Positions 1-5,560 of a stretch of DNA of 5,560 nt are shown here, piece after piece (positions within the stretch are counted from its first letter, which is position 1; every line of letters starts with the position of its first letter). A program made the position numbers and the translations under genes. The stretch lies in the IMG/VR virus record IMGVR_UViG_2703718872_000024; one strand, given 5' to 3'. Source of the stretch: a virus (lineage: Duplodnaviria; Heunggongvirae; Uroviricota; Caudoviricetes). The notes under the pieces are model-generated. The model worked only from the letters and a program-made list of their open reading frames with translations. It had not been told where the DNA came from and did not search any database.

Positions 1-3000
1 GGTACAGGCCCGCCTTGCCCGTGGCAACGCGCCGACGGCGGAGGAGCTTGTACGTTCACAGATGGCTGAAGGTGATGCCGGTCCGACAGCACAGGAGTTA
101 ACTGAGCGTCCGCGTCTGCCCGCCCCCGGCGATATTCATCCCGGACAGGGATATCCGTTACCGGGAGAAGTGGCGCGTACGCCGGATGAAAATCAGGCCG
201 GACGTGGTGGTCGTTTTACCACAACCGGTGAGGTGAAGGGCCAGAGTTTCCAGAAAGGACGTGCGCAGGCACCGGAAAATGCCGCTGGTCGCCAGGGGGA
301 AATTCTGGAGGGCGAACCGGTTCGTCGTGGTCTGCCGTCACCGGATGAGCAGAACGCCACAGCACCAGTGCGTGAAGGACTTCCTGCACCTGAAAGTCAG
401 CGTGGGGTTGATATGCCACAGCCTGAATCACTCCCTCGTATGGTTCGTGACTCCCTTCCGGAACTGGCACAGCAGGCAGAAGCACGCAGACAGACCGGGG
501 ATCGCCAGACCATAACCGATGTTCCGGATACTGAGGTGCCGGTAGATAAACCGAGCACTCACCAGCAGGCGCGTGGTGCGAAAATTGAAGACTTTGGCGA
601 GGAGATTAAGGGCGCGGCAAAACACCGTTATGCGCAGCTTGCTGAAGCTATGGGTAAAACGCTGGAGGATGGGGAGTACGCGACACAACCACTGAGCAAA
701 CTGTTTCCAAAGCCGGATTATGCTCGTCTGGAAAAAGAAGGTGTGGATAGTGACACGCTGGCAATGATGGCGTTGTATCGCAGTGAAATTCCCACCAGAA
801 CAAGCCGTAACATGCAGAAATGGATCAGCATTGTTAAAAGCGGTCGCGAAGCTACTGCCGGTATGCTGGAGGGGAAAATTCCGGCAGCGAAACTGGCTGA
901 TATGATGGACAGTAAGCCGGGGTTACGGAGCATGTCGGATACCTGGAAACTGCTCCGTACGCTTTCTGCATTGCAGATTGATAAAGCATCCGGCTATCGT
1001 GTCAGGTCCGGTGTTTATTCGTTTGTCGGGGGAAAACGTTACGATCCGCCGCAAATGATGTATTCGCTTCGTGATAGCAAGGGGCGCGACCTCTTTTTCT
1101 CGGAAAGCCGGGATGAGTTACTGAAAAAGGCGAAAGCATATTTCGATGAACAAGGCTCCAGAGAAAGGGAAACGCCAGCAACCTCTGCTGATGACAGAAT
1201 AACCTTTGACGTGTACCGGCATAAGGCCAGTGGCGACATTTTTATCGGTTATGGCAAAAACAGGCAGAAACTGAAGGGCGGTTTTGAGTCTGCCCGTGAT
1301 GCACATGATTATGTGCGCACACATCGTGATGAGCTGGTTAATCAGGTGAAGGCGCTGCGTGAAGTCTCGCGTGAGGAGCAGCGTAACGCCACCAACCGCG
1401 ATCGTACCGGACCAGAACGCCGCAAGGGGGATGTTTCGCCGGAGCAGTTCAGTGATGCGTTTGGTTTTCGTGGTGTGCAGTTTGGTAATTATGTGGAAAG
1501 TCCGCGTCGTCAGGCTGATTTGAACCGGGCTTATGACTCGCTGCATGACCTGGCTGACGTGCTGAACGTGCCGACAAAAGCGCTTTCTCTGAACGGTCGT
1601 CTTGGGCTTGCTTTTGGTGCCCGTGGTAAGGGTAAGGCGGCGGCACACTATGAGCCGGGTGAGGTGGCAATCAACCTGACAAAAGGTAACGGACCGGGGG
1701 CGCTGGCCCACGAATGGTTCCATTCACTGGATAATTATTTTGGTCGTTATGATGTTTCCACTGACGGGAAGATCACGTCAGGTGGCGACTATATGACGGA
1801 AGCACAGCGTGCCGGGCGCGTATTTAAAGACGGCAGGTATGTTGATGCGGAATATCCGGTACGTCAGGAGGTTTACGACGCGTTTAAAGGCGTGATGAAA
1901 GCCATTAACAGCAGTGACATGTTGCGTCGTTCTGAACGCCTGGATGGCGTTCGTTCAAAACCGTACTGGTCAACGGATGTTGAAATGGCGGCGCGAGCCT
2001 TTGAGCGTTATGTTCAGGATAAAGCGCGTATGGCTGGCGTGGAGAATGATTATCTGGTCAATATCCGTAAGGCGGATGACCATGGACAGCCGGACACCTA
2101 CGCTTATCCGACGAATGCAGAACTGGATGGCGGTATTCGTGAGGCATTCGATCACTTGTTCCGAACACTGAAAACCCGTGAGACGGACAAGGGAGTTGCG
2201 TTTTATTCCCGTAAGGGCGTGACCCGCACACCTGAAGGCAATCTGATTTCGGATGTTAACCGCAGTGCGGAAGCCAAAGGCAGTCCGGTCTCGCAGGTTG
2301 AAGCTGTTGCCCGTGGCGTGATGAGCGGCATTAAGGACAGTGACCTGAAGGTCCGTGTGGTGAAGTCACAGAAAGAGGCTGAAGCGCTGGCGGGTGAATC
2401 GTTCGACGGTTACGGCAGGGTGCACGCATTCTATCGTCCGGATAAACGAGAAATTGTCCTGGTGGCGGATAACATCCCTGACGGGCGGACCGTACGCGAG
2501 AAGTTGCGTCACGAGATTATCCACCATGCCATGGAGCATGTTGTCACGCCAGCGGAATATCAGACGATTATCAAAACCGTGCTGAAAACCCGCGACAGTG
2601 ATAACGCCACCATCCGTGAAGCATGGCGTAAGGTTGATGCGTCCTATGGTAAGGAATCTCCGGAAGTACAGGCGGGTGAATTTCTGGCACATATGGCGGA
2701 GAAACAGCCGAATAAATTCGTGGCGGCATGGGAGCGTGTTGTTGCTCTGGTCAAAGGGGTACTGCGTCGTACGGGGTTACTGAAGCCGACGGAACTGAAC
2801 GATATCAGACTTGTTCGCGAGACCATCCGTACGTTAGGCCAGCGTGTGCGGGAAGGTTACACGCCGCGTGAGGATGGCGTGGGCGCATCGTCTCAGTACT
2901 CCCGTAGTGGTAAGCCTGATCCGTTCAAAGTGCCGGAAGGTGAGGGTGAACGTTATCGTGATGACCTTGCCAGAATGATGAAGTCGTTACGTTCTGGTGC

Positions 3001-5560
3001 AATGACTGCAAACATTGGGCGTACGCCGCCGGTATTGCGCCACCTTGGCGCACCGGATTTGCCGCTGGTTATCTCCCGCGACACTGTACGGAAGGCAACC
3101 AATGGCGTGAAACATGTGGTGCCAATGGATGTTATCGAGAGACTCCCGGAACTGATGCATGATCCGGATGCAATTTACCGTTCCGCGACAGAAAGAAATG
3201 CAGTTGTGATGCTGCTTGATGCCGTGGATAAAAATGGCGATCCGGTGGTGTCGGCAGTGCACATGAAGGCGACAGGTAAACGTCTGGAAATTAACAAAGT
3301 GGCTTCTGTATATGGTACGGAAAACGGGAAAAAGCTGAAAAGCATGGAAATGGCTGGATTAACGCTTTACCGGAAGGAAAAATTAAGCCGCGATAACCCT
3401 CAGTACAGTGGGCTCCAATTGCCCAAAGAGGAGCGTTCTTATCGCGGCTCTGTAGATAAAATACTCTATCCTGAAGATATTCGCAAGGGGCCGTATTACT
3501 CCCGTACCAGCAGTCTGACACCGGAAGAGACAATTATATCGCGTTTTGTGCGCCAGATGCAGGATAAATTCCGGGTGCTGAAAGCTGTTCAGGAGAATAT
3601 CCGTAAAACTGGCGGAAAAATAGACGATAGTAACAACGCTTATATGGCGGAAGAACTCTTCCACGGGAAGGCGGAAAACGACCTGAACGTGATGAAGGAG
3701 CGCTACGTTCAGCCACTGGCTAAATTACTGGCGGACTACAAAATTGCGCAGGCCGATCTGGATGAGTACCTCTACGCCCGTCACGCGCCGGAACGTAACG
3801 CACATATCGCGAAAATCAACCCGAAAATGCCGGACGGCGGTTCGGGGATGACCAACGCGGAAGCGGCGGAAATCATGCAGCGTGTGCGTAACAGTGGCAA
3901 ACAGGCACAGTATGACCGTCTGGCTGGGATTGTTGACGATATGCTGGCCCGTCGCCGTGAGCTTATCCGTGAGGCCGGACTGGAAGAGAGCGGAGTGGTG
4001 GATGCCTGGCAGAACGCCTACCGTTACTACGTTCCCCTGAAAGGTCAGGATGTTGACGGTATGGTGTCACTGCCCCGTACAGGTAAGGGCTTCACCATCG
4101 GCGGACGTGAAAGCAGGCAGGCCATGGGGCGTGCATCCCGTGCACAGTCTCCGTCCACTCAGGCGATACAGGACCTGAGCGAATCGCTGATCCGCCATCG
4201 CAAAAACGAAGTGGGTAACGCCTTCCTGAAACTGGTGCAGGATAATCCTGACAAGGATTACTGGCAGGTCTTCACTGATGACAGACCTGATACCATGCGT
4301 GCGATTGCAGAGCGTGTTGATCCGGAAACCGGTGAAACCCGTCGCGAAGTTGTCGAACGCCCTGTACCGATGGCAATGATGGCAGACCGGTACTTCACCA
4401 CCAAAAAGAACGGCAAAACGTACTACATCAAACTCCATGATCCGCGCCTGATGCGTGCGATGAAGAGTATGGGACCGGAAACCAGCAATGCCTTTGTTCG
4501 TACGCTGGGGAAAGTTAACCGCTTCCTGGCAACGGTGAACACGTCGTATAACCCGGAATTCCTGGTCAGTAACTTCATCCGTGACGTGCAGACGGCGGTG
4601 ATGAACCTGAAGGCGGAGCAGGGAAGGAGCGACGGTAAACTGAAAGGGCTGGATAACTTATCCGCCCTGGCTGTAGCCAAAGACAGCCGTTCTGCCATGT
4701 CAGCCGTATACGCCAGTCTGCGTGGTAAAACCCTCACGGGAAAAGGTGCACAGTGGCAGAAGGTGTGGAAAGAGTTTGTTGAGGACGGAGGGAAAACCGG
4801 CTGGTTTAACATGGGTGACCTTGAAGGCCAGCAGAAGGAAATGGATCGCCTTGTCTCACTGGCGAAGGGGGGATGGAAAGGCCAGAGTATCGGTGCATGG
4901 AATTCGTTCCTTAACCTTGTCGAGGATGCCAACGGTGCGGTTGAAAACGCTCTGCGTCTTTCTGCCTATAAACATGCCCGTGATGCCGGTTTGTCACGCC
5001 AGCAGGCGGCGTCTCTTGCCAAAAATATGACGGTGAACTTTAACCGTCGTGGTGAGCAGGGGGCGCTGATGAATTCGCTGTACATGTTCGCCAACGCCAG
5101 CATTCAGGGAACGGCAAATCTGGTGAGAACGCTCGGACATCTTAATGGAGAGGGACCTTTACTGGAGCGCCTTCGCTGGAAGAATCTGAATGTTCCGCAG
5201 AAAATCGCGCTTGCCGCTGTGGGAGCGGGTTATCTGCTTGGCTCGCTTAACCGCAGCGTGGCGGGTGAGGATGATGACGGGGTTAACTGGTATGACAAGG
5301 TGCCGTCTCATGTGAAAGAGCGTAACCTCGTCATTATGAAATCGGTGTTCGGGGGCAAGGCCGGAGAGTACTGGAGTATTCCTCTGCCTTACGGGTACAA
5401 CGTTTTCTTCCTGCTTGGTCACACAGCCGAAGGGGTGGCAGCGGGCGACCTGACCGCTTCACGTGCTGCCGGTAATGTTGTTGGTGGTGTGCTTGGGGCA
5501 TTCAGTCCTGTGGGCAGTGAAACGTCGGAAACACTGTCCGGGGCATTGCTGAAAAATGCA
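1..5560 (+). CDS. Internal fragment (5' and 3' truncated by the window) of a giant multidomain protein of more than 1,853 aa; hypothetically a phage/conjugative-element 'polyvalent' protein with zincin-like HExxH modules. Codon phase: first complete codon at nt 2-4, last at nt 5558-5560.
   Basis: Manual translation of frame 2 gives 1,853 consecutive sense codons and no TAA/TAG/TGA. The chance of this in random sequence is about (61/64)^1853, roughly 1e-39. Codon choice is strongly biased toward CTG/CCG/CGT/GCG/AAA/GAA. All other frames and the minus strand are broken into short ORFs. No start or stop codon for this gene lies in the window. Confidence 0.9.
20..560 (+). other. Low-complexity, probably disordered N-terminal region of the encoded protein (Pro/Glu/Gly/Arg/Gln-rich)
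   Basis: The translation reads ...GDAGPTAQELTERPRLPAPGDIHPGQGYPLPGEVARTPDENQAGRGGRFTTTGEVKGQSFQKGRAQAPENAAGRQGEILEGEPVRRGLPSPDEQNATAPVREGLPAPESQRGVDMPQPESLPRMVRDSLPELAQQAEARRQTGDRQTITDVPDTEVPVDKPSTHQQARG... It has few hydrophobic residues and recurring LPxP(D/E) motifs. Confidence 0.55.
317..466 (+). repeat. Degenerate tandem peptide repeat (about 16 aa per unit) within the low-complexity region; repeated at protein level, diverged at DNA level
   Basis: Unit 1 at nt 317-364 encodes PVRRGLPSPDEQNATA. Unit 2 at nt 365-412 encodes PVREGLPAPESQRGVD. A looser third unit at nt 413-466 encodes MPQPESLPRMVRDSLPEL. A related motif YPLPGEVARTPDENQ lies upstream at nt 152-196. The two main units use different codons (for example ccggttcgtcgtggtctgccg versus ccagtgcgtgaaggacttcct). 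Confidence 0.5.
1440..1760 (+). other. Candidate zincin-like metallopeptidase module (HExxH motif HEWFH at nt 1709-1723)
   Basis: The translation reads ...SPEQFSDAFGFRGVQFGNYVESPRRQADLNRAYDSLHDLADVLNVPTKALSLNGRLGLAFGARGKGKAAAHYEPGEVAINLTKGNGPGALAHEWFHSLDNYFGRYD... The H-E-W-F-H codons are cac gaa tgg ttc cat at nt 1709-1723. The Gly-rich FGFRGVQFGNY segment lies at nt 1460-1492. The call rests on the motif only; the fold is not verified. Confidence 0.45.
2402..2560 (+). other. Second candidate HExxH metallopeptidase-like module (HEIIHHAMEH at nt 2510-2539)
   Basis: The translation reads ...FDGYGRVHAFYRPDKREIVLVADNIPDGRTVREKLRHEIIHHAMEHVVTPAEYQTIIKTV... The HExxH residues are encoded at nt 2510-2524, followed by H at 2525-2527 and E-H at 2534-2539 as possible extra ligands. 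The call rests on the motif only. Confidence 0.4.
5201..5560 (+). other. Gly/Ala-rich, partly hydrophobic segment of the encoded protein (possible membrane-interacting or flexible region)
   Basis: KIALAAVGAGYLLGSL is encoded at nt 5201-5248. Further on come ...YWSIPLPYGYNVFFLLGHTAEGVAAGDLTASRAAGNVVGGVLGAFSPVGSETSETLSGALLKNA. The hydrophobic runs are about 15 residues, short for a canonical transmembrane helix. Confidence 0.3.

Follow-up and report, generated by a model that had tools for sequence, protein, structure and literature searches.

The 5,560-nt stretch analysed here (the window; IMG/VR virus record IMGVR_UViG_2703718872_000024) lies within the gene for a giant polyvalent protein of Shiga toxin-converting (Stx) phages and encodes, between nt 317 and 412, two 16-residue peptide units in exact tandem. 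The tandem repeat is real, exists at the level of the peptide only, and is old. Its proline-rich core is likewise a real motif, under selection and restricted to one clade, and is ordinary in kind. The explanation that we consider best, and hold with moderate confidence, is that the cores are selected short linear docking motifs situated in a disordered hinge of the giant protein. The whole window is a single uninterrupted reading frame (frame +2, 1853 codons) that is open at both ends. It begins at about codon 702 of the full-length gene, which places the tandem repeat at about aa 807–838, and it matches 186 Stx-phage records at 90–97 % nucleotide identity, all of them short-tailed Shiga-toxin-converting phages of Escherichia coli or Shigella (Sepvirinae: Traversvirus, Oslovirus). 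The counterparts of the window gene are orf35 of phi86, L0134 of 933W, H0150 of VT2-Sakai, ORF80 of Sp5 and gp47 of phi24B.

The first-pass annotation of the window had reported that the two units share a peptide pattern though their DNA differs, and both parts of this hold. When PVRRGLPSPDEQNATA was compared to PVREGLPAPESQRGVD, eight of the 16 residues were identical (P, V, R, G, L, P, P and Q), as were 24 of the 48 nucleotides, distributed over the three codon positions as 11/16, 10/16 and 3/16, and six of the eight conserved residues are encoded by different synonymous codons in the two units. The pair is the top-scoring 16-mer pair in the first 200 aa, with a BLOSUM62 score of 47; when window aa 1–200, 31–170 and 91–160 were shuffled with their composition preserved, this score was attained in 2/2000, 2/2000 and 0/2000 trials, respectively. 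The units are equal in length and exactly adjacent, and the tail of the first, QNATA(PV), is a spacer belonging to the E. coli lineage. Neither Tandem Repeats Finder (TRF) nor a seed-based repeat finder (tandem and inverted repeats) detected a DNA repeat at nt 317–412; hence, the repeat is one of the protein only. An explanation at the nucleotide level was rejected on the combined grounds that DNA repeats were not detected, that no Rfam model matched at the gathering threshold, that the predicted RNA fold of nt 300–480 was no better than that of shuffled sequences (z = -0.52), and that the opposite-strand open reading frames are short and mechanical. A periodicity of eight residues in the prolines (P106, P114, P122 and P130), considered as the possible remnant of a decayed 8-mer array, was also dropped (P = 0.22 when periods of 4–20 are allowed).

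Conservation of the cores was surveyed in 83 orthologous sequences, which include 14 distinct core 9-mers; 74 of the sequences are of the E. coli type. The more diverged orthologues share 54–66 % identity over a 190-aa linker query (fragments P0035 and P0041 from Salmonella, L009 from Citrobacter braakii, and L054–L058 from IMG/VR), and further ones share 52 % (P0045 and P0046) or approximately 40 % (P0049–P0051). The leucine, the two prolines and the acidic residue are invariant in all 83 sequences. Variation is found at positions -3 (mostly R), -2, x (S, A or R) and +5, and position -1 is either G or E. Core 1 (RRGLPSPD) aligns with YRELPAPE of the Salmonella-like and Citrobacter lineages, and core 2 (REGLPAPE) with (R/H)(Q/K)(G/E)LPRPE. 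The two cores are 16 aa apart in 74/74 E. coli-type sequences. In the Salmonella-like lineages they are directly adjacent with an 8-aa period, the E. coli phages having eight extra residues (QNATAPV.) between them. An alignment of orthologues had been proposed as a check in the first-pass annotation, and its outcome is that the positions of the motif stay fixed where it occurs, whereas the arrangement differs between lineages (16-aa spacing, 8-aa spacing, one copy or none). Changing spacing and copy number around an intact core are what would be expected of a motif, and not of a folded repeat. Orthologues lacking the motif entirely had been named as the finding that would count against it; the approximately 40 % identical P0049–P0051 do lack the tandem cores, but they keep RPRLPAPG, found upstream of the repeats in the window, and the Phi-P-M-P-G that follows it. 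The objection thus applies in part, and to these most distant orthologues alone. Because they retain only the upstream element, the tandem pair is a clade-specific elaboration that is not shared family-wide.

The codons used point in the same direction. Between the E. coli and the Salmonella-like/Citrobacter lineages synonymous sites are saturated (dS 1.8–2.5), and across lineages the invariant residues of the core are encoded by CTG, TTG, CTT, CTA or TTA (Leu) and by CCG, CCA, CCC or CCT (Pro). The 20 residues just upstream of the repeats (block B) have a dN/dS of 0.6–0.7 at dS >1, and a block further upstream, which contains RPRLPAPGDIHPGQGYPLPGEV, has a dN/dS of 0.08–0.10. The E. coli phages themselves carry two deep allele classes, and when the window was compared to 933W over nt 365–493, dS was about 1.0 and dN/dS 0.13. 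The mismatches at nt 367–466 lie nearly all at 3-nt intervals, with 11.5 synonymous versus 1.5 nonsynonymous differences in nt 413–466. The nine codons of core 2 (REGLPAPES) include four synonymous and two nonsynonymous differences, both of the latter outside REGLPAP. The earlier suggestion of selection on a short peptide motif is, thus, borne out: L, P, P and D/E are invariant in the 83 sequences at saturated dS, in a linker whose adjacent residues evolve at a dN/dS of 0.6–0.7.

The segment carrying the repeats is predicted to be disordered by both AlphaFold2 (AF2) and TOP-IDP. In an AF2 model of window aa 1–343, built from an 18-sequence alignment, it is coil with a predicted local distance difference test (pLDDT) value of <50 over aa 39–139. 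A second model, of aa 101–766, again has the units as coil (pLDDT 25–41) without contacts and the next module, at aa ~205–455, at 80–90. Over the units, pLDDT is 25–45 in both constructs. In both TOP-IDP disorder propensity and number of prolines, the 50-aa block that includes the repeats ranks highest within the first 1,200 aa, and proline makes up 12 % of the linker region. Window aa 1–340 lie outside all Pfam and NCBIfam models, and PHROGs returned only whole-protein families of unknown function. A search of the Protein Data Bank (PDB) with the sequence of the whole window protein gave no match, and a Foldseek search of the PDB with the aa 101–766 model gave none at E <= 0.001. A structured repeat domain is not indicated, there being no model match, no PDB match and only coil in the AF2 models.

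Further copies of the motif lie close to the tandem pair (Table 1). All three occurrences of the pattern R..LP.P in the window (1853 aa) fall between aa 36 and 130. The first-pass annotation overlooked the best-conserved relative of the cores, RPRLPAPGD at nt 107–133, though the related motif that it placed at nt 152–196 is real and consists of YPLPGE and TPDENQ. The counterpart of YPLPGE is YP(L/M)PG(E/D) in the Salmonella-like and Citrobacter lineages and FPMPG or AMPGE in the distant orthologues. The looser third copy that the annotation described at nt 413–466 stands only in part. A PhiPxPES core (MPQPES) is present but is out of register, being at the start of the would-be unit and not at residues 6–10, and what remains (LPRMVRDSLPELAQQAE...) is modelled as a low-confidence helix, occurs in E. 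coli phages only and seems to be an element in its own right. At the DNA level, RPRLP (CGTCCGCGTCTGCC, nt 107–120) and the RRGLP of core 1 (CGTCGTGGTCTGCC, nt 323–336) are 79 % identical over 14 nt; cores 1 and 2 are less alike than this, yet the match is too short to exclude chance.

Table 1. Features of the linker and adjoining regions (positions in the 5,560-nt window)
Feature	Position (nt)	Strand	Comment
Giant polyvalent protein gene, internal part	2..5560	+	Window aa 1-1853 = about aa 702-2554 of ~2,783-2,811
Constrained block upstream of repeats (VQARL...GEVKGQSFQKGR)	2..262	+	dN/dS 0.08-0.10; AF2 low confidence, little secondary structure
RPRLPAPGD (R-x-x-L-P-x-P-G-D), oldest motif copy	107..133	+	Conserved with synonymous changes in all enterobacterial lineages
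Related element YPLPGE...TPDENQ	152..196	+	PhiPxPG-E core at nt 152-169
Repeat unit 1, PVRRGLPSPDEQNATA	317..364	+	Selected core RRGLPSPD = nt 323-346
Repeat unit 2, PVREGLPAPESQRGVD	365..412	+	Selected core REGLPAPE = nt 371-394
Degenerate core MPQPES	413..430	+	Matches PhiPxP[DE]; E. coli-type alleles only
LPRMVRDSLPELAQQAEARRQ, separate E. coli-phage-specific element	431..493	+	AF2 helices at aa 146-150 and 152-164, pLDDT about 53-56
Hypervariable acidic/Thr/Pro spacer	494..580	+	Unalignable between allele classes, <50 % nucleotide identity
(Val-Pro)n slippage tract (EVPVD)	533..547	+	Copy number 1-5 among relatives
Start of next folded module (KIEDFGEE...)	581..1459	+	AF2 pLDDT 80-90, window aa ~205-455
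LPD5 domain	1028..1459	+	Pfam, aa 343-486

We propose that a disordered hinge with abundant Pro, Glu, Arg, Gly and Gln spans about aa 735–895 of a protein of ~2,790 aa that is carried in the virion and probably ejected into the cell. In this proposal both 16-residue units go back to a single 8-residue core, (R)-x-(G/E)-L-P-x-P-(D/E), that was duplicated in tandem long ago, and they form part of a group of five neighbouring PhiPxP(G)(D/E) motifs, the oldest being the upstream RPRLPAPGD. Purifying selection holds the core as peptide and not as DNA, and the core is most likely a polyproline-II-like linear motif that docks onto a partner protein. Candidate partners are a factor in phage assembly or encapsidation, a protein that the phage protein encounters in the host once ejected, and another domain of the phage protein itself; the motifs lie at the junction of the N-terminal third and an array of effector and peptidase modules. 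The data establish the repeat and its age, its conservation by position, the changes in copy number and spacing, the absence of predicted structure and the uncleaved presence in virions. The polyproline-II conformation, the docking role and any partner's identity are what we infer.

Several observations weigh against this proposal. Recent shared ancestry explains part of the conservation among E. coli phages, whose alleles are 85–100 % identical over nt 1–360. Citrobacter has core 1 only, and the second copy is therefore dispensable in some contexts. A phmmer search of 1.84 billion representatives gave only nine hits, the pair being confined to a narrow enterobacterial clade, and a scan of genome contigs found a single locus, in Citrobacter braakii; beyond this clade neither search could trace the motif. 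The pattern PhiPxP(G)[DE] is found five times in 130 aa versus 0.07 expected (0/20,000 shuffles; 70-fold) and six times in the whole 2,783-aa protein, but it was defined post hoc, which inflates the enrichment statistics and makes the P value optimistic. AF2 did not dock the motifs onto neighbouring domains, using a shallow alignment and with the zincin region unmodelled due to poor coverage. Finally, the cores fit into none of the known motif classes and have no known partner.

The region may instead be purely a spacer, which is possible, if somewhat unlikely. Here only length, proline content and charge would matter in a flexible or extended proline-rich tether, needed for packing in the head, for threading through the tail channel or for spanning the periplasm, and the repeat would be a fossil of its growth. 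Such a tether would account for the predicted disorder, for a proline content and disorder propensity that are the highest in the first 1,200 aa, and for the distant orthologues without tandem copies. It would also account for the plastic length of the linker, which is altered by the 8-aa indel between the cores, by the (Val-Pro)n tract and by insertions of modules of 190–300 aa at various points. However, it leaves unexplained why a leucine and an acidic residue at fixed positions are invariant among 14 variants at saturated dS when the residues next to them evolve at a dN/dS of 0.6–0.7, and why the motif is enriched 70-fold over composition.

Data for the phi24B protein bear on whether the cores are cut. 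In purified phi24B virions gp47 accounts for 10,962 peptide-spectrum matches (PSMs). Fully tryptic peptides cover the entire region (LPAPGDIHPGQGYPLPGEVAR, GLPSPDAQNATAPVR, EGLPAPDIAR, MPQPESLPR and DSLPELAQQAEVR), and a missed-cleavage peptide, GLPSPDAQNATAPVREGLPAPDIAR (828–852), bridges both cores. None of the peptides recovered there has a non-tryptic end. From the top gel slice down, the spectral counts for gp47 are 2188, 1686, 1187, 1260 and 663, the last being from the slice in which the 724-aa portal protein peaks. Given the tryptic peptides that run through both cores and the gp47 maximum in the top slice, the cores are present in phi24B virions and are not quantitatively cleaved. The peptide counts in the phi24B supplement are pooled, and N- and C-terminal fragments of gp47 are not separable by slice; partial fragmentation, or cleavage after ejection, may be compatible with such data.

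The suggestion in the first-pass annotation that the motif could be a processing site is, thus, disfavoured at the virion stage, and we regard it as unlikely overall. It would have the cores cut by an embedded zincin-like peptidase (HEWFH or HEIIH) or by another protease, freeing the N-terminal third from the effector array at maturation or after ejection. The motifs are indeed placed at a domain boundary, where the disordered chain is accessible, and the counts that reach the lower gel slices could reflect some fragmentation, but fully tryptic peptides run across the region, one of them spanning both cores, non-tryptic ends were not recovered and the peak is in the top slice. Prolines around the scissile bond are unfavourable for most zincins, which also counts against this reading. 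Precedents exist on both sides: autoproteolysis of polyvalent proteins by embedded metallopeptidase (MPTase) domains has been proposed and DdrB of P1 is processed before packaging, whereas the N4 virion RNA polymerase (vRNAP), a giant virion protein that bears an MPTase domain, is packaged unprocessed (Iyer et al. 2017, PMC5512222).

That the units resemble one another by chance or through low complexity, with neither common origin nor selection, is very improbable. The composition of the region is biased (12 % Pro) and strings of this type can arise independently, as protein P0048 shows, but the pair was matched by at most 2/2000 shuffles, its units are exactly tandem, and both cores are conserved in orthologues at saturated dS. 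P0048 (231 aa) is an unrelated protein with a signal-peptide/lipoprotein-like N-terminus and six near-perfect tandem copies of APIRVGLPFPQPQDAGS. Its match to window aa 105–136 (E = 1.3e-5) looks like convergence on P-[VI]-R-x-G-L-P-x-P strings.

Recent replication slippage of the variable-number tandem repeat type, already doubted in the first-pass annotation, would fit the exact adjacency and equal length of the units but is refuted by their nucleotide divergence (50 % identity, with third positions randomised at 3/16), by the negative results of TRF and the repeat finder, and by the two cores being 16 aa apart without exception in the 74 E. coli-type sequences, the true slippage tract, (Val-Pro)n, behaving differently. 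That tract sits 120 nt downstream of the 16-aa repeat and, in alleles that are otherwise near-identical (L003 and L023 were among those compared), has one copy (the window), two (most alleles, which also include a VPMP variant), three, or up to five (L020).

The gene is mosaic around the linker. When compared to 933W-type alleles, the window is 96–98 % identical over nt 1–240, 73–80 % over nt 361–480 and <50 % (unalignable) over nt 481–600, and from nt 600 to nt ~1400 stretches of ~45 % and ~90 % identity follow one another in turn. Alleles L005 and L008 recombine the two classes at other points, and the repeat lies at the edge of a recombining module. The linker can also accommodate an optional module at a position that depends on the lineage. 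In Citrobacter (L009 and L054) approximately 190 aa are found directly after YRELPAPEG. In P0034, from E. coli, approximately 300 aa that include an extra second segment follow SLPELAQQAENRR... and are inserted at the spacer at nt 494–580. The inserted modules have a motif in common (...ALASF...GEM.RKRAR.YLT...DGW.IREKDGTRRLEHPDGRF..EKDIGKTAMDYA.HLIEK...), and the hinge is a hot spot of module gain and loss. A further optional segment (IYPTVRFRD...KKGENQYAVEMDNP...) is located upstream of the window but in the same disordered region, at nt ~11640–11990 of L003 (full-length aa ~582–697). The versions from E. coli, Salmonella (P0035) and Citrobacter have this segment, which is missing from L055–L058, P0041 and P0045, where ...NTARRPLYDADNLDVPAFMRDPRFR follows directly. 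In phage phi191 (L004; accession number NC_028660.1, locus nt ~1378–7051) the giant gene is annotated as overlapping shorter coding sequences (CDSs). Its translation has a frame break inside GDIHP|DRDIRY..., regains the frame before QGETLEGEMVRRGLPSPD, and includes further stops and an ambiguous base, and it represents either a pseudogene or sequencing errors.

In annotated relatives the full-length CDS is 8.35–8.38 kb (2,783–2,793 aa) and lies at the end of the late operon, following the tail-fibre genes and adjoining int/attR. Four Pfam domains were found above gathering cut-offs, namely LPD5 (1.7e-43), LPD1 (4e-23), MuF_C (4.3e-18) and LPD38 (4.7e-49 on the full-length orthologue). The one polypeptide also includes two HExxH zincin-like motifs, HEWFH (nt 1709–1723) and HEIIH (nt 2510–2524). 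The NCBIfam model CLCA_X matched full-length aa 1172–1427 below threshold (153.8 bits against a cut-off of 260). In a tblastn search, aa 195–343 matched beneath a feature labelled 'DdrB-like ParB superfamily domain' in the record of a Pseudoalteromonas phage. No classical transmembrane segment was predicted in the full-length protein, in which no 19-mer has a Kyte–Doolittle hydropathy >1.4. Published annotations of MuF_C disagree, the domain being a metallopeptidase in the phi24B preprint (doi 10.64898/2026.04.10.717836) and a PBECR RNase-like domain elsewhere (Iyer et al., PMC5512222).

The Sp5 orthologue (2,793 aa) is essential, and the heads of a deletion mutant are still filled with DNA (PMC5155283). 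Though the same 2016 study assigned ORF80 to tail assembly and credited it with a 'predicted AAA+ ATPase' (COG1483) domain (PMC5155283), our Pfam and NCBIfam scans found no ATPase domain. In phi24B, gp47 (2,811 aa) is abundant in purified virions and is not seen in the cryo-EM map, and the authors proposed that it is an encapsidated ejection protein whose organisation and delivery are open questions (doi 10.64898/2026.04.10.717836). The size of gp47 is given inconsistently in that preprint, as 2,811 aa in the Results and as '>3,000 aa' in the Discussion (doi 10.64898/2026.04.10.717836).

We found no description of the motif in Iyer et al. 2017 (PMC5512222) or in the 2016 Sp5 paper (PMC5155283). 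Searches of the literature under the locus names ECs1242, L0134 and H0150 yielded only the latter as relevant, a paper that is silent on the motif. Conserved proline-rich motifs are common in the disordered linkers of multidomain proteins, and in a clade this narrow the value of the present one is local and not general. Its carrier is, however, essential for infectious Stx phage (Sp5 ORF80) and among the most abundant components of the virion, and a motif in the hinge that can be mutated would be a cheap experimental handle on the encapsidation, ejection and hand-over to partners of a giant protein.

Among known systems, the host protein is a bona fide member of the large polyvalent proteins (Iyer, Burroughs, Anand, de Souza and Aravind 2017, PMC5512222), which include DarB/DdrB of P1 and the virion RNA polymerase of N4. 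The traits that it shares with them are the LPD5, LPD1, MuF_C and LPD38 domains, the location in a late operon, packaging in the virion, two HExxH motifs and mosaic modules. The difference is that the 2017 catalogue is one of folded domains and the LPxP(D/E) cluster lies outside every LPD model. The words 'linker', 'disordered' and 'low-complexity' were not found in a text search of that paper, and inter-domain linkers and linear motifs are apparently not described there (PMC5512222).

Of short linear motifs in general, the cluster has the predicted disorder and the few fixed positions that are more conserved than their flanks. Eukaryotic SH3, EVH1 and WW domains bind proline-rich ligands of the forms RxxPxxP, PxxPxR, FPPPP and PPxY. 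The cores resemble these in their upstream basic residue, their Leu-Pro centre and a likely polyproline-II conformation, and R-x-x-L-P-x-P is superficially like the class I form RxLPxxP. They differ in their P-x-P spacing, in the acidic residue that follows and in having a bacterial host, and the conserved prolines of the cores form no PxxP of SH3 class I or II; hence, they are not members of this group.

The TonB protein has a proline-rich spacer, (Glu-Pro)n(Lys-Pro)n, that spans the periplasm. Like it, the linker is a proline-rich, charged and probably extended segment between the modules of a protein that crosses the envelope, and the (Val-Pro)n tract is of the same dipeptide type. The tandem units, in contrast, are not dipeptide repeats and are conserved by position and not by composition.

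The unstructured translocation domains of colicins carry a TolB box and OmpF-binding sites. By analogy, the cluster of RPRLPAPGD, YPLPGE, GLPSPD, GLPAPE and MPQPES might be a set of colicin-like docking epitopes in a translocation segment, a doubtful reading that we mention for what it would imply. After ejection, such epitopes would capture a host envelope or cytoplasmic protein, or would be recognized by the protein's own zincin domains, and this step would position or release the effector modules. The cores are unrelated in sequence to TolB and TonB boxes, and the likeness is functional and in concept only: a short core in a disordered stretch, with a few fixed positions that vary less than the flanks, a variable copy number and spacing, and a protein that passes through a narrow conduit into the cell. 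If the analogy were true, it would reveal an undescribed entry or hand-over step of podovirus ejection proteins and offer a handle on the organisation and delivery of a 300-kDa protein.

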